64,000 nucleotides of DNA from the NCBI GenBank assembly GCA_016748015.1, contig JAAOMT010000514.1, forward strand, positions 51,866-115,865. Direction: 5' to 3'. Made by a program: the position numbers and the translations under genes. Source of the stretch: Geosiphon pyriformis uo1. Lineage: Eukaryota; Fungi; Glomeromycota. Below the pieces are notes generated by a model. It worked only from the letters and a program-made list of their open reading frames with translations, had not been told where the DNA came from and made no database searches. How positions within the stretch are numbered: the stretch's first letter is position 1; every line of letters starts with the position of its first letter. Shown one piece after another: positions 6,880 to 62,849 of the stretch.

Positions 6880-7550
6880 TTTAATATTAAGCTCCATTAA
6901 AATCTTCAGTTTAGATTAATTCTATTATTTCTCTTTCTAATACTGTTTGTTTAACTCTGGTTTTTATGTCTTTTATTTGTGAGTTGTTTATTTTTTCTCA
7001 CTGGTTAATGGTATTGTTTCTATTTTTGAGTTTAGTAATATTTTTGGATAATTTTGAAATATGGCATATAATTAATAGATTGTTTTAATGTGTAGTATTG
7101 AATTTGTCTTTTTTTTGATAAAGTTTTCAATTTGTTGTATTATTTTTTAATTGAATATTCTGTTGAACTTGTTGATATATAATTCCTGAATATTTAGCTT
7201 TTGTCCTAATTAATAGTAACAATATAATATTAAAAGTTGTTTTGTTCATTGTTTCTAACTTTTTTTTATTAGCTTTTTTGTTAAAACAATTATGAATATT
7301 TTCCCAAAAGTATTTTTCATTTTTTCTATTATTTTATTTAACTAATGTTTTATTGAGTTTAATAATCATTGATATAATGTATTTTTTGTTTTTTTTTCTT
7401 TTTTGGTGTTCTAATAGCAGATTGTTTGATAATTGATAATGATTTTTATATTTAATTGTTATTGGTTTATGGCTTAAAATAATTGCTGAGCCAATATGTA
7501 AATATGATCTAGAGTTTTCATTTTTTTATTTTATATCTTTTTTTGTCATG
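6880..7550 (-). pseudogene. ORF3 (unknown accessory protein) of element E
   Basis: Lies between the integrase end and the PPT; C-terminus homologous to ORF3 of B/D/A/F and ends in decayed EDFNGAQY*. Confidence 0.6.
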
Positions 7551-20525: not shown

Positions 20526-23500
20526 TTATTTCACTTTTTTAATATTAAGTTCTATCAAAATCTTCTAAATCTCTCTTTTGGATTAGCTTTATAACTTTTT
20601 TCTATAAAATTGCATTTGTAATTTTTGTTTACAATTCATCAAATTGAACATTGGTTAATTTTTCCAGTTAATTAATTGTTATTATATTTATTGCTAAGTG
20701 TAATAATATTTCTGGTTGGTCTTAAAATTTTATTTGTGATTTGTAGATAGCTTTTGCACATGTAAATAAATTGCTTTTTCTTATAACTTGTTTAATTTAT
20801 TGTAGTATTGTTATATTAAACATTTTTTTGGTTTTATCTGTATATAAGTTCTAAATATTTAGTTTTTGTTCTAACTAATAGTAACAAAAGTTCTTAAAAA
20901 TTTGTTGTATATATTGGTTTTAATTTTTTAATATTACTTTTTTATTGAATATTACTTTTTATAAAATTTTCAATGTTTTTCCACTTTTCTTATTATTTTG
21001 TCTACCGAATTTTTAGAAATATAATATTTGAAATATTGTTTTTTTCTTTGGAATTTTTGAATTATTTTTTTGTCTTTATATTAAATTGTTTATTTGTTAA
21101 TAATAACTTCTAAACTTGATTTCTGATGTTGAATAAGTTATAAAAGCTGTTGTACAAATGAGTAAATATCAGTAATTTTTATTTTTATTATTACTTTCAT
21201 TACATATATTGGTTTTTTACATACTGTTCTGATTAATTAATTTAATATGTTTATTTTAATAATTATAATTGGTTCCAGATTCTGTGGAATTTAATCTGAT
21301 TTAATTAGTATTTGTTATACTTCCAATTGTGGAATATTACTAATAGAAAATAATATTATATTATAATATAGTTTTAATTAATTATTATATGTTGTTTTGG
21401 CTAAGATTTTGTTGTCTTATCTTAATTTGTATGTTTTATTTCCTAGAATTTTTTCAATTTAAAATGGTTCATCTCATTTAAGATCAAATTTTTTACTTTA
21501 TTGTTTTTCTGCTTTGGTACAATATAAAAATATTTTGTCTTTGATCTTAAATTCAACTAATTTATTCAGTAATTGGTTATTATATTATTTTTTTTGTTTT
21601 GTTTGTAACTTTTATATATTATCAGCTGCTTTTTGCCTTTTGTTTTCTAAAGTTTTTATTAAGTTATATGTTCTTTGAAAGTTGGCTTCTGTTATTAGTT
21701 TAATTGGATATATATTAATATCTATCTTAATTGATAATATTGCTGTTTTATTATAGCTTAATTTAAATGATATTACTTATATGATATCTTGCTTCATTAT
21801 TTGATAAACAAATAATATTGATGGTATAAACAAATCTATTTATCTTGGTTTTTTTGGCTAATTTTGGCTGATTTTGGCTATTGCTTTACACAATGTTTTG
21901 TTGAATCTTTTAACTAAATTATTTGTTTATAAATAATATAGTGATAATAATGGTTTTTTAATTCCAAATTTCTGACTTAATTTTGTTAATATTTTGTTTA
22001 CAAAGTGAGTTTTCTGGTCTAATAATAATTTTTTTAAACATTTATGTTGACAAATCAAATTTTGGTGTATGAATTTGGTTATAAATACTGTATTTGCTCT
22101 TTGAATTACTTTTATTTTTGACTATTTTGTAAGATAATCTATGATTACTGCTATGTATCAATTGCTTTTACTAAGTATTATTAATGGTCTGACTAAGTCA
22201 ATTCTAATTTGATTAAATGGTTGTTTTACTTTAATTGGTTTTAGTGTTCACTGAGTTTTGTTCATTTTTTTTTCTAATAAACATCACAATTTTAAACATA
22301 TTAAATAATATTTAAATATATTAATGACCAATAATATCTTTTTCTGATCTATTCTATAATTGTTTTTTATAAAAATATCCTGCAGTTGAATTTGAGTACA
22401 TGTTAAACAATACTGTTTCTTTTTTGGTTCTGTAATTACTCTGATTGGTTGATCTGAATCTTTTTTATTTTTCTGATAAAGTATATTTTGGTAAGTGATA
22501 AAATATTTAAATTGTTGTTTTATGTAATTTTGTTTTTTTGAGATAATTTTTTCTTAAACTATTGAGTATTAATATAATATTGAAGTTGTTAGTATTTTTG
22601 TGTGTTTATTTTTTGTTATATTTTTGAATTAAAATGTTTTTAAATTTATTTTATTTATAACAAATCATTAGTATTTCTATTTTTTTTTTTTATAATATAT
22701 AATATAATTAAATAGTAATAGTTCTATTTTTTATTTTGTATAACAATTGTATCTAAATTTTTATTTTTAAATTAATTTTAATTTTTTGTGATTAATATAC
22801 ATATTAAACTTTTAATTTAAGTATTTTTTCTTTTTAATAATAGCATAATAAATAGCTAAATATTCTAATGCTAAAGTTTCATAATTTTTTTCAGTTGAAC
22901 TCAAACTTTAACTGGCATAGTCATTAAATGCTCTTGTTTATTAGCTTCTTTTTGCAACAATACAGCTTTCAATGCTTAACCAAATATATTAATAGTAATA
23001 ATAAATAGTTTGTTATGATTTAAATAGAATAATATTAGAGCTTAAATAAGCTTTTGCCTTAAAATATCAAAGGCTTTTTGTTGTATTTTAGTCTATTTAT
23101 ATTTAATATTTTTTACTTGGAGCTAGTAGAGTAATTGAGCCAGTTTGGAAAAATTTTGGATAAAGCAGCAGTAGTATTTAGCAAATTCTAAGAATGTTCT
23201 TAACTTTGTTAAGTTTGTTAATACTAGAAAGTTTTTAACTATTTTGATTTTGTTTGGGTCTGTTTTGATGTCATTTTTGCTTATAATATGTTCCAAAAAC
23301 TTGAGCTCAGTTTTTCCAAAAAAATACTTGGTTACATTTAACTTTAGTTCTGCTTTTTTTAATTTTTCGAACACTTGCTAAAGATAATAGAGATAATTAT
23401 TGAATGTTTCTGAAAACACATTGGTATTATCTAAGTAAACTACTACTAATTTCTATAGTAGTCTAATATAAACAATTTTTATTAGCTATTAGAAGATAAC

Positions 23501-23613
23501 TGAAGCATTGATTAAGCCAAAAAGCATAATATCTAATTTAAAATTCTTTTTTTTAGTTGTAAATATAATCTTCTCTTTGTCAGTTAAATTCATAGCTACT
23601 TGTTAGTTGCTAC
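19613..23613 (-). mobile_element. Ty3/Gypsy element D, 5'-truncated (3' LTR, ORF3, IN, RNase H, part of RT)
   Basis: LTR 19613-20525 related to E's LTRs; ORF 23123-23374 is RT (KTELKFLEHII); sequence stops in the SGYWQVAM motif at ~23610. Confidence 0.85.
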
Positions 23614-24816
23614 AGGCTCAAAGCTGCTCTTAGACTTTATGACCTATTCTACACCTGTGAAAACATACTACAAAACCCAATTTTTCAACCTTTGAAGATT
23701 CAATACATTGGAAAGCTCACAGAACTGAAATTTCAACAATTTTCAGACCAAATTTCTTCAATAATTTTGGATTATTATCTGGAAATGACAAACAGTACTT
23801 GGACTTCAATGGAGCTCAGTCTTGAGGAGGAGGTTATGTTACTAGACGAAATTAAAGATATTATTTAACATGAAATTATCTTTATAATTCCTATCATTAA
23901 TTAACATATATTATCATTTCAAATTATTACTTAGTATATTAGCAAAATATCCAAAATTATCATTTAATTAATAACCCAATTGGCACATAACACAAATGTA
24001 ACCTAATTGTGATGATCAATCATGCAATACCCCGAACTATATAACATTCAAAAAGTTTGCCGAAATTTGTAGAAATTCACCGAAATAATTGATAGTTCAC
24101 CAAAATATCCAATAGTTTGCAGAAATAACCTGTAGTTCACCGAAATGTATCTTCAGTTCAGTGAAATTGTAGAAAAAGAGCAAAGTTCAAGTTCATAGAA
24201 TAGTGTTACAACAAGTTGTATAAAAAAAGAGCTTTTTTCTTCAAGAAAATATATTTTACTTTAGATTTAACAATTAGAATTATCTTTTACACACAAAAAC
24301 GAAATAAATATCAAATAATTCGAAAAATCAAATCCTGAATTATTTCACTTTTGAAATTAACTAATTCCTACTAAACAGTTTGAAATTGATTAGCTACCAA
24401 TTTCAGTAAACTTTTAGTGACTCCAGGCCTGAATAGAAAATGTTTCTCTTGACAAAATTCTATTTCTTTTACATTTCTTTTATTTTTTTTTTCTTTTCTT
24501 ATTACAATCATTAGGGTAGCCTACAGACAAGATTCCTGAAGAAAAGTTGACTTTCACAGCAAAGTAACTATACATTTTAGTGAGCTTCCAGACAAGCAAT
24601 TTCTGAGAAAGAGTTGACATTTACTACAACGTAACTACATAAAATAACTGGCACGGAATTGGCCATTCTACTTATAAGCCCAGCAGCTCAAATTATAGGA
24701 GATAATTTGAAGATAAATTCAGTTATCAAAGGTTCAAACACTTCCCATAATCATAAATTAACAGCATTACAACAAACATACAAGAGCTAAGAAGAGACCA
24801 AAAACCTCTGGTAACA
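23610..24816 (+). mobile_element. Ty3/Gypsy element C remnant (ORF3 C-terminus, PPT, 3' LTR), A/F family
   Basis: YRLKAALRLYDLFYTCENILQNP...; PPT gaggaggagg at 23824-23833; LTR TGTTAC(23837)...GGTAACA(24816) homologous to A/F LTRs; inserted into B's 3' LTR. Confidence 0.9.
23837..24816 (+). repeat. 3' LTR of element C
   Basis: TG...CA termini with inverted repeat tgttac/gtaaca; similar to 50691-51679. Confidence 0.9.
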
Positions 24817-25803: not shown

Positions 25804-25817
25804 TTATCCCTCTCTTT

Positions 25818-26590
25818 TAAAATTGAGCTCCTGTAAAACCATAAGTATCTGTTGTCATGGCTTTGTTCATGTAATGTTTGATGGTTGCCTTGAGTATTGT
25901 CTTTTGTAGGTCTTTGAACTGTTGATTGGTTATTCATCTTATGTTGTTAACCATTAAAGTTTTCATAGGTTTGTTTAGTAGTACATTTGGACAATGTTAG
26001 AAGATGGCATATAGTCAGTATGTTGCTTTGTAATATAAGATTAGGTTGTTTTTTTCTACATATTTTTTTACTTGTTGCATTGCTTCTTTGTTGAATATTT
26101 TCTGGCTAAGGTCTTCATATGGTGTTTTTAAGTCAAGCTGCTCTTTAATTTTGTAGAACCAATAGGCTGGTAGAAGTCTTTTTCTCCATTCTTGGGTATT
26201 GTCTAGTGTTTATTCCTCTGTTTTGGGAAGTTTAATCTCACAAAATAAAGATTCTTTAATTTTTTCTATCTGAGAGACCAAGTATCTTCTTTTGTAATTT
26301 TTTTCTCGTTCTTTTACTCTTTTTTCTCCACCTTCTGCCCAAAGGCAATTTTTCTTCCAACATTGCCTTTTGGGTGGTGGGTAGGGGAGGAAATGTTTAA
26401 TTCTAATTGAACTCTTGTCCTCCTCTCTTCTGCTTTTATGTTTGTACTGTATCTCTTTTTTGTCAATTGTTATTTTTATTTGAGCAGAAGATTGTTGAAT
26501 TACATCAAACAGTTGTTTCAAGAGTTGTAGAATTTGATCTGAAAGGTTTATGTTGAAAATTTTGTCAACTTATTTCTGTTGTTTCAGTGG
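25818..26590 (-). pseudogene. ORF3 (unknown accessory protein) of element B
   Basis: ORF 26210-26521 continues through stops to LYAIF*HCPNVLLNKPMKTLMVNNI..ITNQQFKDL...GFTGAQF*, homologous to ORF3 of A/F. Confidence 0.7.
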
Positions 26591-29656: not shown

Positions 29657-29689
29657 CTACGGAAATAACACAGTAACAACAAATTCAAA

Positions 29690-34376: not shown

Positions 34377-34396
34377 NNNNNNNNNNNNNNNNNNNN
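34377..34396. other. Assembly gap (20 N) replacing the RT core of A
   Basis: Compared with F, several hundred bp of RT are missing across this gap. Confidence 0.95.
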
Positions 34397-36416: not shown

Positions 36417-36762
36417 ACGAAAACTGGAACTTGAAGCAACAAATCTCACTCCTGAAGTTATACAAAAACAAATCTACAATGAATTCAAAACAGCAGCTGA
36501 ACCAACAAACACTCACTACAAACTTAGAGCAGCTTTTAGACTCTATGATTTGTTTAATACTTGTGAAAATGTTCTACAAAATCCAATACTGCAATCAATG
36601 AAAGTCCAATACATTGGCAAACTCACAGAACTGAAATTTCAACAATTTTCAGACCAGATTACTTCAATCATTTTAGATCACTATCTCAATATTACAGATA
36701 GTGCTTGGACTTCAACGGAGCTCAGTCTTGAGGAGGAGATTATGTTACAGGTAGAATTTTAG
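36417..36762 (+). CDS. ORF3 C-terminal half of element A (unknown function); reads through the PPT into the 3' LTR
   Basis: Open frame RKLELEATNL...HYKLRAAFRLYDLFNTCENVLQNP...LSLEEEIMLQVEF*; homologous to F 58923-59642 and C. Confidence 0.75.
36730..36739 (+). promoter_or_regulatory. Polypurine tract of A
   Basis: GAGGAGGAGA, 3 nt before the 3' LTR TG. Confidence 0.85.
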
Positions 36763-37716
36763 CTATTAATTAGCATGAAATTACCTTTATAATTCCTATA
36801 ATTCATTAGTATATTAATATCATTTCAAATTATCATTTATTATTTAATCAATTATCACATATCACGATTCAAATAAAATAATCTAATTAGTATAACAGAA
36901 AGTAAGATGATCAAATTACATAATACCCTGAACTTTGTAACATTCAAAAATTCGCCGAAATTTATAGAAATTCGCCGAAATTATGAATAGTTCACCCAAA
37001 TTAATCAATAGTTCAGCAAAATAACTTGTAGTTCATCAAAATGTATCTTTAGTTTGCCGGAATTTGGGCAAAGAGAAAAAAAGTGCAAGTTCATAAACTA
37101 GTACTACAACAAGTTGTATAAAAGAAGAGCTTTTCTCTTCTGGAAAATGTATCTTACTTTAGATTTATCACTTAGAACTATTCTTACATACACAAAAAGA
37201 AATAAATATCAAATAATTCAAAAAAAACCAAATTCTTTAATTATTACACTTGGAAAATCCCCAAAACCCAACTAATATTTCGAAATTGATTAGCTACCAA
37301 TTTCAGTAAACTGTTAGTGACTCAAGGCCTGGATAGAAAACGTTTCTCTTGATAAAATTCTATTTCTTTTATATTTCTTTTATTTTTTCTTTTTTTTCTT
37401 ATTACAATCATTAGGATAGCCTACAGATGAGATTTCTGTAGAAGAGTTGACTTTCACAGCAAAGTAACTACACATTTTAGTGAGCTTCCAGACTAGCAAT
37501 TCCTGGGAAAGAGTTGATGTTTACTACAACATAACTACATAAAGTAACTGGCAAGGAATTGGCCATTCCACTTATAAGCCCAGCAGTTCAAATTATAGGA
37601 GATAATTTGAAGATAAATTCGGTTATTGAAGGTTCAACCACATCCAGAAAACGTGAATTCACAACAGATAGGCATCAACAACATTTAAAAAAAGAGACCA
37701 AAAACCTTTGGTAACA
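36743..37716 (+). repeat. 3' LTR of element A
   Basis: TGTTAC...GGTAACA; direct repeat of 28672-29644. Confidence 0.97.
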
Positions 37717-43959: not shown

Positions 43960-44693
43960 TTGGCTTCCTGTGGCTGTTCAGAAACACCTTTATAATAAAT
44001 GTTATTCTAGTGTTTTATGTTTATATTGTGATAAAATAGAGGTGTCTGATCATGTGTTTTCTTGTGTGGTTGACATTTCTGCTCATTGTCAGATTTTGGA
44101 CTTCTGTGCATCTTTTGGAAGGTGCTTTCTGGTCTCTTTATTCCTTTTTTAAATATGTTGTAGCTGCTGTCAACTTGTGCTTTAGATTTTTTGGTGTCCT
44201 TAGTTCTTTACAAGAGTTTTGTTTTTAATAGATGGCTTCAGGAGGCTATTTCCATCTTTCATGATCCCAAAATTGCTGATGTCAAAATTATTGATTTCAT
44301 GTGCTCTCTTTGTTTCACTTTTAGGAACAATATTTGGTTGGTTCATGTTAAGCATCATGTCTTTATGAAAAAGAATAGTCTGATTCCTAGGGACGGCTCA
44401 GCTCTCATCTTGGTTCCTGGTCTGGCTTCAGTGTTTTTGGCTGGTGTGGTTAAACTGCTTGGCATTACAGAGACTTTTGGTGTTTGTTTTAGTTTTCGCA
44501 GATTCTGGTTGTTTTTTTCAGATATTGGTAACTCGGTTTCTGTTAATATAATTGTGTAGTATTGTCTTAACTGGCTTGAGTGGCTAGTCATGTGTAGAAA
44601 ATGCATGATTCATGTTTAATTTAGATCATTTCTTTGATGTATAGTTCTGAATGGTGTTTGGATTTTATTCGTTAAATAAAAAAATAAAAAAAA
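43960..44693 (+). mobile_element. 3' end of LINE I (C-terminal zinc finger, 3' UTR, A-rich tail)
   Basis: LPVAVQKHLYNKCYSSVLCLYCDKIEVSDHVFSC; ORF 44191-44559 is homologous to LINE G 45346-45894; A-rich tail at 44674-44693. Confidence 0.88.
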
Positions 44694-45345
44694 TGTTATT
44701 AATATTAATTAAACTATAAATTATTTTTTTAATTCTTAAATGTATATTTTTTTTTTAATATAATTAATATTTATTTTGAAATTAAGCAGTTTTTAATACT
44801 TTTGTATTTAAACTTGGTTTGTTTTTACTTAATATTTATAATTAATAAGATGAATTAATACTATATATTTATAGTATAATATTTAAATTTTTATATAAGC
44901 TTTGATTTTATTAGTTAATATAAAATCAATTTGTAAACATATTTAATAAAAATTATATAAAGATTGTTTTTTGTTGCTGTTTAACAATAGTTATATAATA
45001 AGCAATATTTTAAGATAATTTGTTTATACTATAATAATATTAAATTTTTAAATCATATTTTTACATATAAGTTAAATATTAATATATACTTAAATATATT
45101 AAATAATATATTTAATTTTTGAGTTTTTATTTTTAATATATTGTTTTTATTATTATTAATATTATATTTGCTTAATTTTAATACTTTAATAATTTATTAT
45201 ATACTATAATATTTTATTATTATTATTATTTAATGAGTAAGGTTCAAACACAGCCTAGTTTTATACATTAAAAAAATGATCTATACTAGGTGTGAATCAT
45301 GTTTTTTCTATATGTAACCAGTCACTTAGGCTAATCAGAACAACA

Positions 45346-48300
45346 CTATGCAGTTATACAAACTGAAACTGAATTACTTATTCCAGAAAAAAACAAACAA
45401 GATTTGTAAAATACAAAATATACACCAAAAGCTTTAACTATGTTAAGCATCTTAACCACACTAGCAAAAAACCCTGAAGTCAAACCAAAGACCAATATAA
45501 GAGCTGAATTATCAAAAGAAATCAAGCCATTTTTTTCCATATATGCCTGATGTTGAGCATGAACCAACCAGACATTATCCCTAAAATCAAGACTAAGAGA
45601 ACACACAAACTCAACAATCTTATGACAAGCAACTTTGGGATCATGAAAAATAGAAATAGTCTTACAAAACCAATCATCAAAAACACAACCCTTAAAAAGA
45701 GCCATAGACAAAGAAGAATCAGAAACACAGGTCGACAACAACTGGAGCACACCCGAAGAAAAATAGGAGAGACCCAAAAGTGACTTCCAAGAATTCACAT
45801 GGGATTTCAGTATTTGATGCCAAGTAGGCTCATCAACTTTGCAAAAAAACACATGATCTGATACTTTTATCTCATTATAGTACAAACACAGCACATTGGG
45901 ATAACATTTATTATAAAGGCACTTTCAAACAGCCACAGACAACTGACAATACAGAGCTTTCATAAAATAAGTGTGCATATTGGCCAAGGCTTTGCTGGTA
46001 TAACCAGCAGCCATATGCAAATCAGGATGCCACACCAGCAAAGACCAGTGCCAATTAATCTCAGAAAGCAAACCATAAGGCAAAAACTTTAAACCAGAAC
46101 CAACTTTCCAATATGCACAACAGACAGAATGATAAATATTATAAACAAAATGTCTATAATTGCCAGAAATAATACTGTCATCAGCCACCAAAAAATGTTC
46201 ATTCAGATGAGGTGGAAAAAACCAACCAGAAATAGACATGTCACCAGTAAGTAAATCAGCACAGTCATTTCCCGGGACACCAGAGTGACTTTTTACCTTG
46301 TGCCAACTAATACTCAAATTTTTACCATGAATAATATTAACCATATGATAATGTTTGACCCAACACTAATTATGAAAATTGGAACATGCCAAAACCAATT
46401 CTGATTTGCAAGCATCTAAAGCAGATTGACTATCTGAAAACAAGTGAACAGAACTAGCCAATGTAATAACTTGTATCTCAGCCAAAGTAGATGACATTAA
46501 ACCCAATACTCCAATGCCCAAACCCAAATCAATGTCTTCAAAATAAACAGTAGCACTGGCCCTACAGTCAACTGTGCCCAAACCTCTTAGAAACCCATCT
46601 GTATATACAGATAAACTACCAGTACCAACCCAAGATAGATGATCACATACAGACATAAAACTACTAAAGCCAAGAATGTTCAGAGAACCAATACCACTTG
46701 ACACTAAGAAAAGAGTTGAAAACAAATCTGCATTATTGAGAAATACAGTGGAGAGTTTGAATCACTCAGGAACAGGCCCATGGGGGTCTAGCCTCTTCCA
46801 CTACTTAAATGTGTACCAATCAAAGACAGTGCCATGACAATTATGAAGTTGGTCCACAAATGCAATACCATATCATCGAAGAAAAGGAAGAAACTTAAAA
46901 AACATTGACTTACCAAGGACAACAGACATGGGAATCCCACCACAACCATAAAAAGAATTGGCCAGAGAGCCACCAATAGACAGACTGCAATCACAAAGAA
47001 CACAAACCATGCCCACTAAGAAATTATTAGAAGTACCAATACAAATGCGAACTAGAGAACATAGAGAATAAACAAAATGCCAACAAAGTATTTGCAAATC
47101 ATGAGACCTGTGAGAAAATAAATAATCCAGAATCCCATCAGAGTTTGCAAAGCTAATAAGAGAGATGCTCTTACTCTCAGATTGAATTTGCACAAAGAAT
47201 TTTAAATCATAAAAAGAGAGATGATGAATTGTGTCACTTAAAAAGTCAAGAGACAGGCCAGACTTGATCTTTAGCTTCTTATGAATCAGAGCATCCCACT
47301 TGTTGCATACACTAACCAGAACAAAACTAAACTGCATTCTATAACTTACTATAAGATGAAGTACTACTAACACCAAATATAAAAACTGCTTACCTGAGAC
47401 CATCTTTCTTAGAACCAAGTTGATAAAAAAGCAAACATCTGAATTTGTCTTAGCCAAATTAGGCTTCAAAAGACCTTTAGTCAAAAGAAAAATACCCAAG
47501 TACTAATGAGATTTATCTTTTTTAGTAATAGAGATAGGTGCACTACTGATAGAGAGAAAAGAAATGCTAACTCTATTATTAATAGAAATAGCCACTGTTT
47601 TGTCATTATTAATTAAAATGTCATTAATTTGAAAGAAATCACTTGCAATATTAAGAATATGCTGAGTAGCACTTTGATTGCTACCAATCCAAATTGTATC
47701 ATTGACAAAGACACCAGCAACAAAAAAAGAAGAAAGCCCAGCCTGAGATTCAGCATGACCACTCTTGGAAACAAAATAAAAATTCAGTCTATACTCACAT
47801 ACACTCTCTTAATGCTTAACTTTACACAACAAAGGGTCATAAAATATGTGCCACAGAAGAGGGAAAAAAACTTCTCCCTAGTCTAAACTATCATATACAT
47901 GATAATCACTTGTTAAACCAAAATCTGTCATAACCCTGTTGGTACGATTTTTATGAATATTACCAAAGAATTAAACAAATTTGCTGTACATCTTAATCCT
48001 GACCAAACTTTTCTCAAAATGTTCCCAGCTGACCAAATCATATGCTTTTCACATGTTCTACAGAACTAGCTAAATCTTTCTGTTCTTCTCCAAAGTATCC
48101 TCAATAACCGAACTGATTGCAAAAATGAGAGACTGAGTTGACATGCCCTTTAAAACTGAAAAATTGTTCCCACAAAGAACATCAAAAGTGTTACATGTCA
48201 AAGAAATCCTATTAGAGAGAATCTTGGAAAGAATCTTGTAAGCTGTCTTAATTAAAGCAATAGGATAGATATTCATTAGAACACCCTCCCAGTTGTAAGG

Positions 48301-50012: not shown

Positions 50013-50690
50013 TGAGAAAAAAGATTGGAAAATGCATTACCAGCCAAAATTGAATCATCAAATCTTGCTATTAGACTCAAAACCAAAGCAGAAAGCCCTT
50101 TCAGTATGATTTCTAGTCTTTTTACTTTAGGAGATGCAAAAGAAACTAATTTCACAGCAGTCTCACCACCAGTGTTCCCACTCAACTCTTTCTTATCACT
50201 ACATTACTCACTTGATCCTATAATAGGGGGGTTACTGGCAGCTAACATTCAGGGCTAGGCTGGAAAACTGCTGGCATGAGTGAATCCAATCTCTTAGCCA
50301 ACTCACTAATTTGTTTTGTGAGGCTGGTAAGACTATTTTCCAAAATAGCAAACCTTTTTTCAATATCAATTATAACAGACAGAGTAGACTTCATCTCCAA
50401 AAAGAAACCAGAATCGACCAAACTACTATGCACAGAAAAAGGAGGAAACAAAAATCTACCTGCAATCTTTGCCTAAGACACTTTACCAAAAACGATAGAA
50501 TGAGCAACAGGAACTGAACATTTAGAATAAATGTTAACCAGTCTGCTTTTATCCAAGTTTGAAAGTATTCTATGAGAAGATCTTCCAAAGAAAAAATTCT
50601 TACCCACAAAACAGCTCAATGATGTATAATCCACTTTCTTACACTTAGCACATTTAGAAAAACCCAAATAAGACCAGTGCAGATTCATGT
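50009..50690 (-). pseudogene. LINE G ORF1 C-terminal part (degenerate zinc knuckle, coiled coil)
   Basis: CAKCKKVDYTSLSC; IEKRFAILENSLTSLTKQISELAKRLDSL heptads. Confidence 0.75.
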
Positions 50691-51679
50691 TGTTACCAGA
50701 CAAAATTAGAGATATTATTTAGCATAAAATTATTTTTATAATTCTTATCATTAATTAGCATATATTATTGTTTCAAATTATCACTTATTACATTAGCAAA
50801 ATGTCCGAAATTATCATTTAATTAATAACCCAATTTGTACATAACACAGATATAACCTAATTGCAATGATCAATCATGCAATATCCCGAAATATGTAACA
50901 TTCAAAAGTTCACTGAAATTTGTAGAAATTTGCCGAAATAATTGATAGTTCACCAAAATATCTAATAGTTCACAGAAATAACTTGTAGTTTACCAAAATA
51001 TATCTTTAGTTCAGCAAAATTGTAGAAAAGAACAAAGTTCAAGTTCATAGAATAGTGTTATGACAAGTTGTATAAAAAAAGAGCTTCTCTCTTCGAAAAA
51101 ATGTATCTTACTTTAAATTTATTACTTAGAACCATTTCTACACACACAAAAAAAAATAAAATATCAAATAATTTGAAAAACCAATTTCTTTAAAATATTG
51201 CACTTGGAAAATCTCCAAAAAAAAACCCAACTAACGTTTTGAAATTGATTAGCTACCAATTTCAGTAAACTGTTAGTGACTCCAGACCTGAATAGAAAAC
51301 GTTTCTCTTAACAGAATTCTATTTCTTTTACATTTCTTTTATTTTCTTTCTTTTATTTTCTTATTATAATCATTAGGGTAGTCTACAGATGAAATTTCTA
51401 TAGAAGAGTTGACTTTCACAGCAAAGTAACTACACATTTTTAGTGAGCTTCTAAACAAGCAATTCCTAAAAAAGAGTTGACATTTACTACAACATAACTA
51501 CACAAAGCAACTGGCATGGAATTGGCCATTTCACTTATAAGCCCAGCAGTTCAAATTATAGGAAATAATTTAAAGATAAATTCAGTTACTGGAGGTTCAA
51601 CTACTTCCTGGAAACGTGAATTCACAGCAAATCAACATCAACAACATTCAAGAAAAAAGACCAAAAACCTCCGGTAACA
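50691..51679 (+). repeat. 5' LTR of element F
   Basis: TGTTACCAG...CCGGTAACA. Confidence 0.97.
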
Positions 51680-51681
51680 TT

Positions 51682-51691
51682 TGGTGCTCTT
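51682..51691 (+). promoter_or_regulatory. Primer-binding site of F (TGGTGCTCTT)
   Basis: Same position and sequence as the PBS of A. Confidence 0.85.
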
Positions 51692-51724
51692 CCACGGAAA
51701 TAACACAGCAACAACAAATTCAAA

Positions 51725-54700
51725 GTGGCAACCACACCAGACACAACAACTCTAGAGTATTACCAGTCAATTTATACACACTGCAAGCAAAGATTCAACA
51801 TTCCAGACGGAATTGAAGTTGTCAAGAAATCAGTATACCAATACATTAAAAACTGCATCAACAATTATCTTTTTAGAAACTACAACATTTCAGAAGTTAG
51901 AAGCAACCTCTACAATAATTTAGTGCACTATTCACAATTGGGAACAGAAGACCTGAACAGTAAAACACTTGCTAACTACTTCCAAAAACTTAATTTTAAC
52001 ATTATTGAGTATTGTTAAAAAAAATACCCAGTACAGTTTAAATATTCTTTTGACTTTGAATCAGAAACAAAAACAAGCAACAAAGGCAAACAAAAATTGA
52101 ATACTCAAAAACCACCCCAAATACTCCAATACTACCAAAAACAACTGCCAAACACTTACAAACACCTGAACAAGGAACCAGTTCAAAACTCCCACTCACT
52201 ATTACATCTTTTCTAACTTCACTTGTACAAACAAAAACTCCTAATTTACCTTTAAATCGATTTTCAAGACTAGAAGATTATACATCACCCAGAAGTCCCA
52301 CCAGACAACAAGAAACCCTTCAGACTAGTACCAATCTTCTTGACTATTTAGCAGAAAACACAAGTGAACACTCTGAAACATTAACCAATGAAGAAAACGT
52401 TTCTGAATCCATTGAAGAAGAAATAGAATCTGAAGAAAAAAGTGAATTAACAGATAATGAGAAAGAAGATGAAATAACAGCTTATATTGCAAAAATTTCT
52501 GAATTTAATAGAGAAAATATTGAGACCAGTCCCCAAGAATGGCTCGACCAAGTTACTAAAGCTGAAGATGCAAATGGATGGAATGCTGCCAGAATGTTAA
52601 AAACAATTTTCTACTTTCTCAAAGGAACAGCAGACAAATGGTTCGAAAACTTGATCACTTTTTTTAATAACTGGACAGCTTTCAAAACTGCCTTCTTAGA
52701 ACAATTTACTGATAACAACACCTTCATTACTCTTCAAAATTGTTTTCACAATATCAAACAAGAACCCTCCGAATCTGTCATGACTTATATTGGGAAATTC
52801 AACAAACTTCTCAGACAAATTCGCCAACTTGAAACTAATAATTATTATTTCAATGCTCAAATCTTGGATCAATTTATTGCTGGTCTAAAGGATAAACTGA
52901 TTAAAAAGATTCACTCACATGCCCCAGAAGATTTAAACTCTGCCATACAACATGCAAAGAGATACGAAATGACCATAGAAGAGACCAATCACACAAAACT
53001 TGTAAACTTGGCCATTAAAGAAACCAGTTTAGCAGCTGAAAAGAAAATTGACCAACTTACAAATAAAGTTGAAAACTATTTCACCAACCAACAACAACAG
53101 CAACCCCAAAAATATCAACCACCCCAAAGACGAAATCAAAATACCTTCACATCACCTTCTAATAACCAGTCTCAGAATTGCCATTACTGTGGAATTCCTA
53201 GCCACTGAAAAAGAGATTGCAGAAAGTTACAATGAGACCAACAAAATAGGAGTAATTAATATTACCCTCCACTACAGCAATCTTATTATTAACCACCACC
53301 ACCAGCTTACTATCTACCAAGACCCCAATACCAAAATAACTATTATCAGCCTGCCCCACAGCCAATCCAACAACAATACCAACAACCACTTACACAATAT
53401 TATCAAGTACCTGCTCGAAGATTGATTACACAAAATCAATTCACACCATAAAACCAATACCAAGTAAACAACAATAGAATTAGTTTAAACAACCAATTGG
53501 TTACCTGAAATTTCACTCAACCAAGACCCAACCACTATCACATTCAACCCAGTTATTTAACAATTCCAAAAGAACAGAATTTTCACCATACTGCACTCTC
53601 AGAATGTAGAGCTGCAGCATGACAACAAAACTTTTCCTATACTCTTACCACAATTTTACCAGCCAGAATTGCTGAAAATGCCAACTTTTCAGATATATTC
53701 CCTTTTGAGTTCGAAGCAAATGAGTCACCATTCCTGCTCAGCAATGCAGTCACCAATGAACAAAAAGCAATCACTGCTATGTACACTGAAGCAGAAGTCG
53801 AAAGAAAGGCAATTTGCTTGATCCTAAACAGTAGATCCACCAGAAGCATCATCACCTACCAGTTGATACAACAGTTAAAGAGAAATGTTAACTGACCAGT
53901 TCAGACAGTAATTGTTACTGGTGATAACATAAAAAAGACTCTTGTAGGAGAAATTGACAATTTTCTGTTCACTCTTGATGGAATCACCATTTCAGTTAAA
54001 GTTCTTGTAATGAACACGCCCCAGTATCAAGCCCTTGTCGGAAATAATTGGCTCCAAAAAGCCAATGCAAAATTAAACTGGGAAACCCAAGAATTACAAC
54101 TCTTCTATCAAGAACAACATGCCTGAATATCTGCTACTTGTGGTACATTCAACAAACAATTGGAGAAAGCCCCTGTCTTTGAATTTGAAGAGAAGGAAGA
54201 AAAGCCTGTAGTCGAAACATTTATGGCTCTTGAATTAACATCTAACTGGGCTGAAGAAACTGAGCAAACGTATTTTGCAACAAAATCATATCTAGAGGAA
54301 CCAAAAACCCTTGAATAGAACATCCCATATTCTAAACCAGAACCAAAGAAACAACACTCTTACATTCCACTCAAATGCAAGAACTGCCACAAAAAACTCT
54401 TCTCAATAGGAGCCTGCATTTCACCTGAAGAAGAATATGAAAATCATACTTGTTATTACTGCAAAGCTTGCCACAGAGAATGATAGGGCCATCTAATAAA
54501 AAGAAGTGGAAAATAGGACAACACTCTTTGTTTGACTTGTGGAGATACACTACCAGAAGAATACAATTGGATTAATATAGCAATAAGAGAAGGAGTCTGC
54601 AATCAAACCTGCCAATATGCTTTATCAATTTCAGAAAAAGTCAAAAGAAGAACACTCTTTGATGCAGCATACAACAGTGCTTTCAACAAACTCTATTACT

Positions 54701-57368
54701 ACCCTCATGATGCTGAAATGATTTTCAACCTAGCAATGGCATTGGTTAATAGAGCTACTAAAGAAGATGTTTGTCAAATAAAAGAAGCTGAATATATCAA
54801 ATATACCTTGGAATTAGCTGGATACGATTATGAAGATGAAGTAGAAGTGTACCATCAAATTGCAAGTCACACCTATCCGACTAAAGAAGCTCAAGCTCAA
54901 CAGCTAGAGCAAATGAACATTATATTGTGTAAAGAATGCATAATGCCTTGCGATAAACAATGGTGCTCTGAATACTATGCTCTTAGCATTCCTCTGCCCA
55001 GTGAAAATGATAAAAACGAAATTGAATTTGGAGAACCTGAAGCAACAGAAGAAATTGAAACAACACTCATCTATCTCATTGAAAATTAGCCTGCCTTACA
55101 ACTCAAATACTTCAACAACAACAAACAAGGAATAAAACTTGAAAAAGCACATGAAATTGATGCTGAATATGACCTAAAATATCCAAACAAAAATACTCTT
55201 GTTCTCAAACCCAAATTTCTCACAAAAATCAACCTCAAAATTGCTCTCGAAATCCCACCAGGAGCAATGGTTCAAATCACCTTCCGGTCTTCTCTGGCAA
55301 GCAAAGAAATTAATGTCAAAGGAGAAATAATTGATGCTGGATATACTGGTAATATAACAGTAATACTCCAAAACAAAACTGACAAGCCGTTTAAGATTGA
55401 ACATGCCGAGAAAATTGCCCAAGCCATTTATTTACCCTTAATTAACATTTTGGGTTTACAATTAGTCAATCAAAAAGAACAATTGGAAAAAAGTGAAAGA
55501 GAAACTTAAGGTTTTGGTTCAACTGGACAATTCACAGTTTCAGTAAACATAGCTCTCAATAAACAGAATGAGTCTCACCAGATTTTATGCCTTCCCCAAC
55601 CAATTACTATTTCACCTTTCAGAGAACACTCTGAAATCTATACCTACTCAAAGCCAACAACCACCCAACAAATTTTTGAGTCCAATAAACGAATCTGCTT
55701 GGAACATAATATCTCGATTCCAAACATTTATATTCCAAAAGGAACAAAAAAAGTCCAAGTTACTTTTTATAATCCCAACAATTATCTTATAGTTTTATTA
55801 AATAACTTAGAAATTGGAATCATTCACAGTAACATCTTTCAACAAGAATTACCCCAAACAGTCCCCAATTTCTCTGAAATTATTGGACATTCACTACCAA
55901 AAATCAACCCAAATCCCAGCTCTGAAAACTACTATGTTGTTATAGAAAAACTATCTTGAATTAACATGGGACAACTTGAACCACAACAACAAAACCAGCT
56001 CAAAGAGCTAATTGCAGAATTTGCCGATATCTTTGCTGAAAACAACAATGACTTTGAAAGAACCAATTTGGTTCAACATCAAATCTACACAGTAAATGCC
56101 AACCAAGGTGACAGCAAGCCTATTGAGTTGCTCCAGAAAGTCACCAATTTATTCGCAAAGAAGTACAACGGATGCTCAACAATAGGCTTATTCAACCATT
56201 AATGAATCCATGGGCCTCACCTGTGGTCTTAGTTAAAAAGAAAAATAAAAAGATACGATTTTGTGTTGATTATTGACAACTCAACAGCATCACCATTGGA
56301 GATGCCTATCCTTTTTCCCGAATTAATGACATGTTAGATGCTCTTGAAAAGTTCAAATACTTTTCAACATTAGATTTAAAGAGTGGATACTGGCAAGTTG
56401 CCATGGATCCCAAAGATTGCCCCAAAACAGCATTTACTATTCAAGAAGGAAATTACAAGTTCAACGTAATGTCTTTCGGATTATGCAATGCACCAGCAAC
56501 ATTCTAAAGACTCATGGATGTTGTTTACAAAGGCCTCCTTTGGAAATCAGTAGTTGTTTATCTTGATAATACTGATGTTTACTCACCATCTTTTGAATTA
56601 CACTTAAAACACCTGCGAAAAGTCTTTCAATGATTATGGAAAGCAGAATTGAAACTGAACATCAAAAAATGCTACTTCAGAAAAACAAGTTTGGCCTTTC
56701 TTGGTCATATCGTTAGTAAAAATAGAATCAAACCAGATTCTGGAAAAATCAGTGCTGTCAAAAACTTCAAAACTCCTCAAAACACTACAGAACTAAGAGA
56801 ATTCATAGAGTTAGCCTCTTACTATTAGAAGTTTATCAAAGAATTCTCAGAAATTACAAAACCTCTCAACCAGCTTACCACCAAAAACGTCAAATACAAA
56901 TGAACTGCTGAACACCAAAATGCATTTGAAATCCTCAAAGAAAAACTAATCACAGCTCCAATTCTTGTCTACTCAGATTTCAGCAACCAATTCTGGTTAG
57001 CAATAGATGCCTTTTATACTGCCTTTGGTGCCATTCTATCACAGTTAGATGACAATAGAAATGAACAAATAATTGCTTATGCTAGTAGAACATTGAAACT
57101 GGCTGAAAAAAACTACCCTGCAACAGAATTAGAAACTGCAGCAGTAATCTGGGCCCTACATTACTTCAACCTTTACTTCAGACCCAAAGAATTCAATATT
57201 ATCACTGATAATATTGAACTCAAATGGCTTCAAAACAAAAACACTCAGCTAAATGCCAAACAAACCTGATGGACAGAATTTTTAGCCAACTACCAATACA
57301 TTGTACATCACAAACCAGGAAAACTCCACACCAATGTTGATTGTCTCTCAAGAATAAGGCAAAATTAG
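51725..57368 (+). pseudogene. gag-pol of element F (Gag, PR, Cys-rich domain, dUTPase, RT, RNase H)
   Basis: Colinear with A; GEIIDAGYTGNI (dUTPase motif III); VVVYLDNT; ends SRIRQN*; many premature stops. Confidence 0.93.
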
Positions 57369-57414
57369 AACATAAAAACAACTCCCATTTGAATTAACAA
57401 CAAAACAACAAACA

Positions 57415-58800
57415 ATGAATCCCAAAAACTACAACAATCTTAAACAATATTTGGAGACATTAACAATTCCAACAGATTGGTTCTCAAATAAAAAACATTG
57501 GTTACAACAACAAGCCAATTAATACTTCTTACACAACAACATGATTTATTATTGAAACTTCAGAAACCCAGACAATCCACTCAGATTAATACAAGAACAT
57601 GAAAAAGAAACCATTTTATATAACATGCACTCAGACCCTTCATCAGCACACCTAGGAAAAGACAGCACCACCCAGAGAGCACTAGAATATTATTTTTGGC
57701 CTCAAATGAGAAAAGACATTTATAAATATGTTAAGTTTTGTGATAGTTGTCAAAGAAGAGAAGGAACTCACCCTATAGAATCTTTAATCCCAATCAAAGT
57801 TGAACAGTCTTTTGACTGAATTGATATCAATTTAGTCGGACCACTCCCTATCACAAACCAAGGAAACTGTTATATTGCAGTAGCTGTAGACTATCTCACC
57901 AAATGGCCTGAAGCCAGAGCCATTCAACAAGCAGATGCGAAATCAGTAGCAAACTTCATCTACGAAAACATTATTTGTAGATATAGATGCCCAATAGAAC
58001 TTTTATCTGATCAAGGAACACATTTTGTGAACAATTTAATCCAGGAAATTTGTGGACAATTTAATGTCAAAAGACTATTATCTTCGCCCTATCATCCACA
58101 AACAAATGGACTTATAGAACGTTTCAACAGAACATTGTGTGAATTATTAGCCAAGGTTTTAACTGATTTTGAGCAAAAATGAGATCTTTTTATTCCATCA
58201 GTGTTACTAGCATATAGAACACTAAAACAAGATACCACAAAACACACACTATTTGATTTAATCTATGAAAGGACAGCAATGTTACCAATTAGTTTCACAA
58301 TAAAAACATATCCAGTACAACTAATTAATAAAGACAACTTTCAGGAAACACTACAATAAAGAGCCTATACTCTGCTTAGCACATTGGAAAGAAAACAATG
58401 AATAGCAGCCACCCATATTAAACACTCTCAAGCTCAACAAAAAGAATGGCATGACAACAAATTGCCTTCAGTTACCAATGAATTTAAAATTGGAAACAAA
58501 GTTTTCTTACACAGAACTAAAGCTGAAAAACAATAGAGTAAAAAATTTGAAAATAAATGGAATGGACCATTTTTTATCCATGAAGTCCTAGGCAATGGAT
58601 CATACAAGCTAAAACTTGATGACAAAATTCTAGCAAAAGTTGCACATGGAAATCGTTTAAAACACTATAATTCCAGAAACAATCTTGAACCATTAATTCT
58701 ACAAATTGGTACACATTCCCCTTTAATCAATTCCGAAAATATTCTCTGAAATTTAGAACCAATAGTTGTTATTGAACAACCTCCCAACTTGAACACTTAA
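57415..58800 (+). pseudogene. Integrase of element F with GPY/F module, no chromodomain
   Basis: MNPKNY start; HHCC; DDE core; KWNGPFFIHEVLGNGSYKL; ends NLEPIVVIEQPPNLNT*. Confidence 0.9.
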
Positions 58801-58922
58801 TTTAAATTTATTATTATAGTTATCTTCTTATAATTTAGAAACAATCTTACAAAAACAAAACAAAAATAACATAAAAACCCATACACCAAAAATAATTTTC
58901 TTTTATTTTCAAATTTCTTATA

Positions 58923-59642
58923 ATGACTATTCCTCAAAACATTCAACAATTATTCCAAAAACTAATGTTAGCTTTAAAAACAATACCCGAATTATCTATT
59001 ACTGTTACTGGAAACCACATTAATTATACCCAAACAGAAGTAGTTACAAATTTAGCCCCAAATTCACGAAAATATCACCTGTATAAGAAGAACACAAGAA
59101 ATTATTCTGGAATTCACCTGCCAGAACTTTTAAAGCTTGCTTTAAGAGAAAACTTAATGCTCACTTCTATTAGTATTCCACCAAATGCTATTATTTAACA
59201 AAAACTTCAACTGTGTCTTAATAAAGAAAACTATGACTATACTCCAATATATAGATATTTTTACATTGAAAAAACACTTCACAAATAAAAACGGGAGCTT
59301 ACAGCAACAAACCTTACAAAAGAAGCTATTCGGAAACAACTCCACAATGAATTCAAGACAACAGCTGGACCTACAAACTGTCATTATAAACTAAGAACTG
59401 CTCTTAGACTTTATGACCTATTCTACATCTGTGAAAATGTCCTACAAAACCCAATTTTACAGTCTTTGAAAATTCAATACATTGAAAAGCTCACAGAACT
59501 GAAATTTCAACAATTTTCAGACCAAATTTCTTCAATAATTTTGGATTATTATCTGGAAATTACAGACAGTACTTGGACTTCGACAGAGCTCAGTTTTGAA
59601 AAGAAGGTTATATTACCAGACGAAATTAGAAATATTATTTAG
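58923..59642 (+). pseudogene. ORF3 of element F (unknown ~240-aa accessory protein), overlapping the PPT and 3' LTR
   Basis: ATG at 58923 after an A-rich spacer; MTIPQNIQQLFQKL...; after one frameshift and stops it continues as ...HYKLRTALRLYDLFYICENVLQNP...ILPDEIRNII*. Confidence 0.75.
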
Positions 59643-60599
59643 CATGAAATTATTTTTATAATTTTTATCATTAATTAGCATATATTATTGTTTCAAATTA
59701 TCACTTATTACATTAGCAAAATGTCCGAAATTATCATTTAATTAATAACCCAATTTGTACATAACACAGATGTAACCTAATTGCAATGATCAATTATGCA
59801 ATACTTCGAAATATGTAACATTCAAAAGTTCACTGAAATTTGTAGAAATTTGTAGAAATAATTAATAGTTCACCAAAATATCTAATAGTTCACAGAAATA
59901 ACTTGTAGTTCGCCAAAATGTATCTTTAGTTTAGCAAAATTGTAGAAAAGAGCAAAATTCAAGTTCATAAAATAGTGTTATGACAAGTTGTATAAAAAAA
60001 GAGCTTTTCTCTTCGAAAAAATGTATCTTACTTTAGATTTATCACTTAGAACCATTCTTACACACACAAAAAGAAATAAAATATCAAATAATTTGAAAAA
60101 CCAATTTTTTTAAAATATTGCACTTAGAAAATCTCCAAAAAAAAACCCAACTAACATTTTGAAATTGATTAGCTACCAATTTCAGTAAACTGTTAGTGAC
60201 TCCAGACCTGGATAGAAAACGTTTCTCTTGACAGAATTCTATTTCTTTTACATTTCTTTTATTTTTTTTCTTTTATTTTCTTATTATAATCATTAGAGTA
60301 GCCTACAGACGAAATTCCTGTAGAAGAGTTGACTTTCACAGCAAAGTAACTACACATTTTTAGTAAGCTTCCAAACAAGCAATTCCTGAGAAAGAGTTGA
60401 CATTTACTACAACATAACTACACAAAACAACTGGCATGGAATTGGCCATTCCATTTATAAGCCCAACAGTTCAAATTATAGGAAATAATTTGAAGATAAA
60501 TTCAGTTACTGGAGGTTCAACTACTTCTTGGAAACATAAATTCACAGCAAATTAACATTAACAACATTCAAGAAAAGAGACCAAAAATCTCCAATAACA
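59611..60599 (+). repeat. 3' LTR of element F
   Basis: Direct repeat of 50691-51679 (first TG decayed to TA). Confidence 0.95.
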
Positions 60600-61762
60600 A
60601 CGTCCCTCAAAACTGGAGTAATTCCCATAACAGCATCTAAGGATTCAGCTGTTTCAAAACAAACAACAGCACATCTGGCACAAACATACATAATTAGATA
60701 ACAATCAATTACACATGTCTTCCCATCCACAGAACTAATAAAGTACCAGACATCATAAGCATTTGTTCCCATTAACAGAATATAAAGCAGTGTTCTATGA
60801 TGATCTCTTGCATTTTATGATTTCTTATCTTGATTAGCTCTGGCTACATGCACAGCATCCTTCCCAATTAAAATAGACCAACAAGCCATGACCAAATCAG
60901 CCTGCTCAATCTTACCAAATTTGACTACAGCTTTTTGCCACAATTCTACCAATTGCATTTTGATCAACACCACCATACCAAATTCAGATAGTGCAGTGTG
61001 CACAGTCTCAGCCAAAGTTCCAATAAGGATTTCTTTTATTATCATAGCCCAATCTGATCACCCAAATGATTTTTTGAGATCAGCATTCACCAAAATTTTT
61101 GCTTTTTCAGCCTTTTTAAAAGCCTGTACCAAACTTAATTCAAAAATAAATATTGCTCTGATGATCCCAGCAAATTTTGAGGGGGTAGAGACCTCCCCAA
61201 AACCATTGATTTTTGAAAATAACTTTCTAATTACCATAAGCTTTTCTTGAGCAGATTTTCTAACAACATTGTTTAAACTGATGTCCAAAGTGAAAGATTT
61301 TCTAACAGAAACATTAACCAAGTTTTTCAAAAAGGGGGGGAGAACTACAAATTTGTCCAAGAGAATGTTATCATTATCATTATTCAAGAAATCAATTTTC
61401 TCTAGTGGTTTACCCAGTGCTCTCTTAGTCTGAATTTTCGAACTCTTAGGAGTTTGTTCTAAGTTTCTACCAGCAATAATGCCACCTTCTCCATAATCAA
61501 AGCTGGTCTCCTTAACCAAAAATTTTTTTTTCATGTTCACACTTTCTGATTCAGTGGTATTGCCTGTTTCAGAACTCTATAAACAACTACTTGATGCCTT
61601 AGCAGTAGCAAATTTTTTATTACTTATATTATTTTTAAAAGCATCATTTCTTTTTTTTTTTCTAGACTCAGTAGACTTGACACTAATATTAAAACCAGGC
61701 TTTATGATAGACTTGTTTAAAACAGCAATACTAAGGCCAACAGTAGCCTCATAATCAAGCAA
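60600..61762 (-). pseudogene. LINE G ORF1 N-terminal part (RRM-like)
   Basis: ORF fragments 61577-61762, 61058-61540, 60815-61045 and 60542-60772; IIKEILIGT...LSEFGMV...KAVVKF is RRM-like. Confidence 0.75.
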
Positions 61763-62849
61763 AAACAGTTTGGAAATATTGTGCTGAATGGTGAAAAAAC
61801 TTTTTTCAGAAAATTATGGGCTCTTTTTTGAAAATTTGAAATGAATGAAAGAAAGAAGTTTTTTTTTTACTGAATTTATTTTACTATAATATACAAAAAT
61901 ATTTTATTAAATATCTAATATACCAAAACTGTATTAATATTTAAGAATACAAAATAGTTTAATTTGTATTTAATGCTTTTTATTTATTTTTTAGTAAAAA
62001 ACCACAAAAAAAAGTATAATTATATTGGTTTAAATATAAACTACTATAAAAAAATACAATTTATATAGTTTAATTAAATATTTATTAGTTAGTATTATTT
62101 ATATGCTTAATATAAATAAAACTATAATTATTAATTTTTGGTTTATATAATAAATATTTGTTTTTTTTGGCTTAAATAATAGTATTAATATTGTTATAAA
62201 TATATAATATAGTCTTAATTAGTTTAAATAATTGGTTATATATAATAAAATATAAGTTATATCTTATTGTAAATACTTAATTTGTTTATATAAACTAAAT
62301 AGTAATTAAACTATATTCTGTAAATATTTTAATAATAATAAAATTTAATTTGCCAAATTTTTAATTATTATGTATTTAATTTAAATTTTTTTCGAATTTT
62401 TGTTTTTTAAACTACAGTCAAATTTTTATAAAAAAACACAATTAGAATATACAAATTATGTTTTATTTTAAAAATATTTTATTATAGAGTTTTATAATTG
62501 TTATTTATTTTTTAGAATCTTCTTTTATTTTTTATATTTATATAATTTTTTTTAAGTAAATTTTGGTTTTCTATATATTAATATATTTTTTTGTCAATAA
62601 TTTATCAATTATTACAGTATAATTTTCGAAATTTTGACCAATTGTTGTGTATTTAATAGTAAATTATTAAATATATTTATAGTAATTAATGTTTTAAATT
62701 TTTGATTATAGAAAAAAAAATTATTTTTTGTTAATAGTTTTGAATTATAATAAATATTACTTAAAATCATAATTGAATAACATAATCAATTGTTTTTTTA
62801 TGTTTAATTTATTTTTAAAAAATAAATTAATATTAAATAAAATTATATA

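Follow-up and report, generated by a model that had tools for sequence, protein, structure and literature searches.

What is encoded between the integrase (IN) gene and the 3' long terminal repeat (LTR) of a Geosiphon pyriformis retrotransposon, in the position of env, is the question raised by this locus. The original prediction was a conserved third ORF (ORF3) whose product is not an envelope protein. The window analysed, i.e. the whole stretch of 64,000 nucleotides, is AT-rich, shows a CpG observed/expected ratio of 0.17 and is crowded with decayed LTR elements. Self-BLAST and domain mapping of the whole window delineated six related Ty3/Gypsy elements or fragments, named A to F. Element F (50691-60599, + strand) contains the ORF in question, C (28672-37716, +) is nested inside B (43959-24818, -), A is a truncated 3' fragment (23610-24816, +), and D and E, on the - strand, are older copies. 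According to self-BLAST, three of the elements lie in or adjoin others. Pfam matches included gag, aspartic protease, dUTPase and integrase, and the elements show both the Ty3/Gypsy order, gag followed by PR-RT-RNase H-IN, and the expected TG..CA LTRs, PBS, PPT and target duplication. The 5' LTR of F (50691..51679, +), directly followed by a PBS-like TGGTG, and its 3' LTR (59611..60599, +) diverge by 5.6%, with transitions accounting for 54 of the 55 differences. Target duplications of 4 bp, ACGT/ATGT (ACGT with one copy decayed), flank both F (50687-50690 / 60600-60603) and C (28668-28671 / 37717-37720), hinting at a preference for CpG-containing targets in the two insertions scored. Open frames beside F, at 60620-61800, resemble those of another decayed element, the apparent insertion site of F.

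In the usual Ty3/Gypsy layout the integrase is continuous with RT-RNase H in one Pol frame, which is not the case here. The decayed gag-PR-(Cys-rich domain)-dUTPase-RT-RNase H region of F (51700..57368, +) ends after RNase H at a stop that is common to C, B and the metagenome contig L001 (see below), and the integrase is encoded by a separate ORF that opens with an ATG of its own (57415..58800, +) and has an SH3-like C-terminus. This ATG lies 46 nt downstream of the RNase H stop in F, 57 nt in C and 24 nt in L001, the stop, an A/C-rich spacer and the ATG occupying 57366-57417 in F, 34813-34875 in C and 772-801 in L001. As the integrase is not part of Pol, it needs another route into particles. 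No chromodomain was found at the C-terminus of the L001 integrase and two relatives, in which only SH3_Tf2-1 was matched. Two further features of the upstream coding region were observed. A Cys-rich domain of ~300 aa between protease and dUTPase (about 54150-55090 and 32110-33040) had no match in a Pfam search and gave an omega of 0.33-0.55 between F and C (182 codons). The gag frame continues for ~250 codons ahead of the capsid domain (51700-52100 in F, 29680-30100 in C) with no ATG near the PBS and, in both elements, a GTG in AAAGTGGC context, so that gag of F and C possibly has a non-AUG start.

ORF3 of F (58923..59642, +) starts 122 nt past the IN stop and has 239 codons; it is a pseudogene copy with TAA at 59196 and 59286. 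A homologous ORF had been claimed between IN and the PPT of all six elements, and a profile search recovered it in each at an iE of 2e-20 or better. The profile (A4) was made from 19 family members, including B, not D or E, and close kin of F, A and C. Its matches were F 58923-59636(+), iE 5e-79; B 26548-25793(-), iE 1e-75; C 36430-36759(+), iE 5e-44; A 23608-23862(+), iE 1e-32; D 7521-6937(-), iE 7e-24; and E 20955-20563(-), iE 2e-20; all its other matches in the window had an iE of at least 0.09. In C the C-half of ORF3 is present (36417..36762, +) and the N-half falls inside the N gap 35980-36416, and the truncated A retains the last 85 codons only (23608..23868, +). ORF3 of B (25817..26551, -) is about 22% identical to the F type, and D (6887..7521, -) and E (20544..21200, -) contain remnants; the matched spans of B, D and E include 4, 14 and 8 internal stops, respectively. 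The LYDLF (F/A/C) and LYAIF (B) motifs quoted earlier are present in these ORFs. Protein similarity does outlast DNA similarity: the blastn alignment of F and B ends at the end of IN, whereas tblastn (E 2.5e-5) and hhalign (E 2e-5) both find the ORF3 of B.

A search with the C-half of ORF3 matched 130 proteins among 462 candidates, and the best 120 of these were all Geosiphon pyriformis hypothetical proteins, with identities of up to 88%. Open 239-aa relatives of the F ORF3 are 79-87% identical to it across the C-terminal 117 aa. The fully open proteins that were fetched comprise 23 of F type (239 aa) and 24 of C type (221 or 235 aa), counts that are biased toward open copies because the proteins come from annotated genes. 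An exhaustive HMMER search returned 56 representatives at E<=0.001, ten of which were looked up: eight are from Geosiphon and two are metagenome proteins (P0151 and P0152), representing two lineages 27-28% identical to the F type. L001, the contig of P0152, has the order RT-RH, stop, ATG-IN, 316-nt spacer, open ORF3, PPT, LTR, so that position and frame of ORF3 persist at about 28% identity. A word-based search with the stop-free ORF3 stretch of B gave no match among 309 candidates, B-type proteins being found later by HMMER, and a metagenome scan with P0151 gave none. The analysis thereby identifies far more than 100 Geosiphon proteins annotated as 'hypothetical' as transposon ORF3 copies. 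ORF3 may resemble hypothetical proteins abundant in AM fungi. No description of the family was found in the literature searched.

Selection on the C-terminal half of ORF3 was estimated by the Nei-Gojobori method with three transition weights. Over the 99 codons before the PPT, F and C differ by 37 synonymous and 26 non-synonymous changes, distributed 17/9/37 over codon positions 1/2/3, which gives an omega of 0.13, 0.19 and 0.23 (95% CI 0.09-0.32 at kappa 3). These values, far from 1, compare with 0.07-0.43 for gag, PR, RT, RH and IN of the same pair (gag 0.13-0.29; IN 0.26-0.43). A versus C gave 0.12-0.22, a comparison that is not independent of F versus C. Within the subfamily, F versus A gave 0.52-0.83 with a CI spanning 1, as expected because post-insertion decay dominates there. 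The C-half of ORF3 is therefore under purifying selection between subfamilies, comparable to gag and pol. None of the six copies in the window is complete and intact, which might indicate that there is no functional protein gene and that conservation stems from RNA or DNA signals or from chance. However, omega is about 0.2 in the coding frame as opposed to 1.1, 2.0, 1.2 and 2.7 in four of the five other frames (0.33 in the antisense frame that shares its third positions with ORF3), the P0152 protein has a confidently predicted fold, and the frame is open in the F-type and C-type proteins and in L001. A non-functional ORF3 is hardly credible, and is already largely refuted by the dN/dS values.

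The position of ORF3 is that of env, and an env-like or membrane protein serving spread between cells or nuclei might be expected there. However, the top 19-residue Kyte-Doolittle mean among 26 full-length ORF3 proteins was 1.5, indicating no TM segment; by hydropathy, none of the six proteins tested had a signal-like N-terminus, and five of these six lacked a furin-type site. Pfam searches with 19 members and 6 proteins matched no env or fusion-protein family, the Foldseek viral library gave 0 ORF3 matches at E<=0.001, and the AF2 model is all-helical and globular. An envelope function is very unlikely, as the original prediction held. Taken together, profile, dN/dS and hydropathy data bear out the conserved, soluble product that it described, and ORF3 is a real, selected, non-env accessory gene of this Ty3/Gypsy lineage. 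The basic character also ascribed to the protein turned out to be mostly the result of mutational decay. E>K outnumbers every other change among the 23 F-type copies (103 cases), and taking the majority residue of each column in these copies gives a net charge of -1. The two metagenome homologs, both intact, have a pI of 5.9 (P0151) and 5.4 (P0152), versus a median of 9.3 for 26 decayed copies.

The ORF had further been likened to nef and sag, host-modulating retroviral genes that overlap the 3' LTR. In A, C and F it does read through the PPT and stop inside U3, but the overlap is not extensive, measuring 32 nt in F, 32 nt in A and 20 nt in C. The 'ELSLEEEIML' tail is the translation of a cis element composed of GGAGCTCA, the polypurine tract (59598-59607) and a spacer (59586..59610, +), which is found in all seven junctions examined (6/6 elements and L001) and is translated in two different frames. 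With the frame used in F, A, C and L001, ORF3 ends within ~11 codons of where the LTR begins; with that of B, D and E, it stops before the PPT. Since the overlap amounts to only 7-11 codons and is absent in three of the six elements, the analogy is unsupported, and no large conserved coding part was found in U3. ORF3 also lacks Gly2 and a TM anchor. Even though the read-through frame is common to F/A/C and both metagenome lineages, it is highly improbable that ORF3 is a gene of this kind whose U3 overlap matters.

The architecture of the protein was predicted with AF2. The F-type protein, with a shallow alignment, gave a pLDDT of 44, only three helices at residues 107-175 being partly confident; the better model is that of the homolog P0152 (about 29% identical), with a diverse alignment (pLDDT 80, pTM 0.64). 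It consists of a helix and beta-hairpin (7-38), a linker (40-52, pLDDT <50) and a helical core (82-212, about 90). According to model and conserved columns, the N-terminal module corresponds to ~residues 1-38 of the F ORF3 (58923..59036, +), and it is kept in every subfamily with an N-terminus; the conserved helical core corresponds to ~residues 107-212 (59241..59558, +). The low-confidence linker contains a PY-NLS-like motif, R/H/K-x2-5-PY plus basic residues (59067..59093, +), placed, as in PY-NLS cargoes, in a predicted disordered segment. According to PMC2408616, R/H/K-x2-5-PY is the C-terminal consensus of PY-NLSs, and the NLS of yeast Hrp1 ends in RNNGYHPY, i.e. like the YHPY form commonest in the F and C types. 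The F copy at 58923-59642 has YHLY. In the alignment, P is present in 89/141 rows and Y in 129/150 rows. The complete motif occurs in 10/10 non-F/C proteins tested, 13/23 F-type and 8/24 C-type proteins, versus a chance rate of 4-11% per shuffled N-terminus; PY is retained in 14/24 C-type proteins, the losses being P>S/L.

Within the core, helices 126-141 and 146-160 of the P0152 model are joined by G-x-(T/N)-N, and model and conserved turn together place an HTH-like unit, helix-(G-x-T/N-N)-helix, at about 59319-59447 (+). G is found in 141 and N in 168 of 169 rows, mostly from F/C copies. The residues after the invariant N vary by subfamily (TNSRYKL in F/A/C, NNLTLHY in B, TNIRTRF in L001). 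Between the F and C types 38/45 positions are identical in residues 131-175, 32/37 in residues 176-212 and 46-67% in the N-half. The chances that the predicted core contains an HTH appear about even: profile and fold searches gave nothing significant, and this reading depends on the predicted geometry and on the conservation of the turn.

In Pfam, the best match of the F type was DUF1016_N (E 0.12, 12.9 bits vs a cut-off of 32.8), and PDB sequence searches with ORF3 gave E 1.3 and 0.43 at best. Foldseek against the PDB returned 0 matches at E<=0.001 and VIA-align of the P0152 model 0/48161 chains at Z>=5; as anticipated, there was no clear structural match to env or an annotated TE domain. Three ParB-family DNA-binding domains stand among the best 50 VIA-align matches listed (1vz0, Spo0J, Z 4.2, rmsd 5.3, 93 aligned; KorB and ParB, 1r71 and 6s6h, Z 3.2 each), and these are inside noise because no chain reaches Z>=5. 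The weak F-type model gave Z of at most 5.9, and several HTH proteins were scattered among its unrelated helical matches. As in the predicted ORF3 core, the ParB/Spo0J/KorB domain, DUF1016_N (PF17761) and DUF3102 (PF11300) have a helix with Y/W-x-I-G-x-x-L followed by a helix-turn-helix, and the ORF3 core aligns collinearly with them over 76-90 columns, with scores below thresholds and within shuffle noise. In hhalign the score of the core was reached by 2/60 and 7/40 block shuffles for DUF1016_N, 9/40 for DUF3102 and 20/40 for HTH_ParB. The profiles were built from 69 sequences for DUF1016_N (7/80 YhcG loci removed by hand and 4 by a length filter), 25 for DUF3102 (1/26 loci, with stops inside, left out) and 28 ParB-HTH loci (one genome left out). 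The positive control, DUF3102 vs DUF1016_N, scored 30, and the test is weak because another control pair, DUF1016_N (YhcG-N) vs ParB, scored only 10.5. The resemblance, seen in motif and predicted fold, is thus a lead and not membership.

Membership in DUF1016_N, a sub-threshold Pfam lead, was not confirmed by the profile tests. Set aside were phrog_23683 (E 4e-4) and a tblastn match to Bacillus phage BC1856 (E 0.4-0.6) involving the same residues, both likely helical chance matches. NCBIfam FtsQ was matched by 3/21 members (best E 5e-4). In the ESM Atlas the top match for P0152 was a Mucoromycota cluster (0.94, 176/256 features), recognition remaining below the mark of the tool; a closterovirus coat protein scored 0.93, close to this value.

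Immediately upstream of a TATA-like box, every LTR type contains a periodic array. In the 3' LTR of F it comprises six RTTCRCCGAAAT-like sites with 20-21-bp spacing (59828-59940, +) and ends about 50 bp before the TATA-like box at 59991; the same six sites are present in the 5' LTR (50908-51020, +). The repeat measures 10/20 bp in B, 40 bp in D and 38 bp in E. F, A and C have in common both the six-site array, whose sites are partly palindromic, and a near-identical ORF3 helix, a match of array type and ORF3 type that is not independent evidence because both share ancestry. Array autocorrelation exceeded the maximum of 10 local shuffles in 10/11 LTRs (z 4.3-9.0 vs <=3.9); in L001 six TTGCCCTAG-like sites can be made out, but the array is irregular and stays below this maximum (z 3.1 vs 3.3). 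Tandem repeats in U3 are a frequent feature of LTRs, and host factors are what they usually bind. Here, subfamily-specific tandem motifs, such as would be sought in the regulatory DNA of an element with a Tas- or VANC-like protein, were found in 10/11 LTRs.

The best reading of these predicted features is that ORF3 encodes a trans-regulator or nucleic-acid binder. A nuclear nucleic-acid-binding accessory factor of some kind is probable; the narrower proposal, a nuclear LTR-binding trans-activator or anti-silencer comparable to foamy-virus Tas or VANC, falls somewhat short of an even chance. Translation of ORF3 would begin at its own ATG, on an RNA that is spliced or made from an internal promoter, and the protein would be imported into the nucleus via Kap104/Transportin. 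The second helix of the HTH-like unit, whose first turns differ between subfamilies just as the arrays do, would then bind DNA at the phased arrays of the element's own LTR. Bound ORF3 could switch on transcription or shield the LTR from silencing, working, like Tas or VANC, by positive feedback or as a shield against methylation.

A pattern resembling a splice acceptor bears on another role. Downstream of the TATA-like box in each LTR type, a branch-like CTAAY and a pyrimidine tract are followed by TAG or a decayed form of it (about 60150-60300 in F and the same part of the B/D/E LTRs), suggesting an intron inside the LTR; because of this tract the element RNA may be spliced. ORF3 could accordingly be imagined as an RNA-handling factor that binds element RNA inside the nucleus, exporting unspliced genomic RNA, like Rev or CERV, or bringing the separate integrase into particles, and the integrase being outside Pol would fit the latter task. 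PY-NLSs are characteristic of proteins that shuttle and bind RNA, Hrp1 and Nab2 for example (PMC2408616), and CERV of Cer1 offers a precedent for such an accessory factor (PMC10309623). However, no RNA-binding family in Pfam matched ORF3, the protein has no Arg-rich motif and is near neutral in charge, and RNA handling leaves the subfamily-specific variation right after the invariant turn unexplained; we consider this role rather unlikely.

Lower still in probability, and distinctly unlikely, is a role in integration, in which ORF3 would carry the pre-integration complex into the nucleus or, standing in for a chromodomain, tether it to target DNA. The NLS-like motif and HTH-like unit would suit it, as would the SH3-like tail of the chromodomain-free L001 integrase, the ACGT/ATGT duplications and the three elements in or beside others. 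A 4-bp target preference can, however, come from the integrase alone, and the duplications represent two insertions only.

Additional ORFs in the position of ORF3 are of a known kind (PMC7264820; PMC5408684), and for the majority of those in LTR retrotransposons no function is known (PMC7264820). The sense, env-like aORF-3S of plant Ty3/Gypsy elements is likewise conserved, being found after pol and before the 3' LTR in the majority of copies, and regulatory roles have been proposed for plant additional ORFs; plant sense aORFs, however, often have TM segments, whereas the sense ORF3 described here is predicted to be soluble and has no Pfam family, and the nuclear gene23 of Grande is antisense (PMC7264820). 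The rotifer elements Juno, Vesta and TelKA are also of Ty3/Gypsy type and have, besides a dUTPase, a third ORF, in many cases one other than env (PMC5408684). The ORF3 products described for them are env-like proteins, GDSL esterases or DEDDy exonucleases; no such protein was matched here (no Pfam match for GDSL or DEDDy), and the separate IN ORF sets the Geosiphon elements apart from them.

Three further systems can be compared with the proposed function of ORF3. Foamy-virus Tas is encoded by an accessory ORF before the 3' LTR and activates the LTR, but foamy viruses are retroviruses with env and a proven internal promoter, and ORF3 showed no sequence relationship (PMC8670036, PMC13220597). 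VANC of Arabidopsis VANDAL is encoded by a TE, and its targets lie in tandem repeats that vary from one related TE to another, an arrangement that the U3 arrays match. VANDAL is, however, a plant DNA transposon, and binding and demethylation were shown for VANC, whereas the corresponding role of ORF3 is a proposal (PMC5735166); no homology between VANC and ORF3 was found. CERV of the C. elegans LTR retrotransposon Cer1 is, as predicted for ORF3, a non-env nuclear accessory protein; it is made from spliced RNA and needed for RNA export, and no homology to ORF3 was found (PMC10309623).

LTR elements make up 41.2% of the G. pyriformis genome (PMC11952901), and a related AM fungus methylates its TEs (bioRxiv 10.1101/2021.03.30.436303). 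For these reasons an element-encoded activator or anti-silencer, if real, would bear on how the LTR expansion of Geosiphon happened, and a switch acting on its own promoter would help explain the multiplication of these elements in their host. The most far-reaching version, which we regard as doubtful, would make ORF3 of this three-cistron Glomeromycota lineage (Gag-PR-dUTPase-RT-RH, IN, ORF3) a sequence-specific transcription factor belonging to the element itself, namely an HTH protein remotely of ParB/KorB type that has a PY-NLS. It would co-evolve with phased U3 palindrome arrays, lift host silencing one subfamily at a time and have driven the LTR expansion to 41% of the genome, as the counterpart of Tas and VANC in a fungal retrotransposon. 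As the ORF3 family comes with candidate U3 targets, the six-site array and its variants in other subfamilies, the idea that LTR retrotransposons encode their own DNA-binding regulators is directly testable.

Other repeats were noted in the window. A 2-kb self-inverted element (43968-45938; 67% over the palindrome, 106-nt arms) lies outside these LTR elements, a 40-bp tandem array of 6.8 copies (5624-5895) adjoins the end of the LTR of D, and the segments 16321-16787 and 47815-48281, a 66% pair, are remnants of another repeat.
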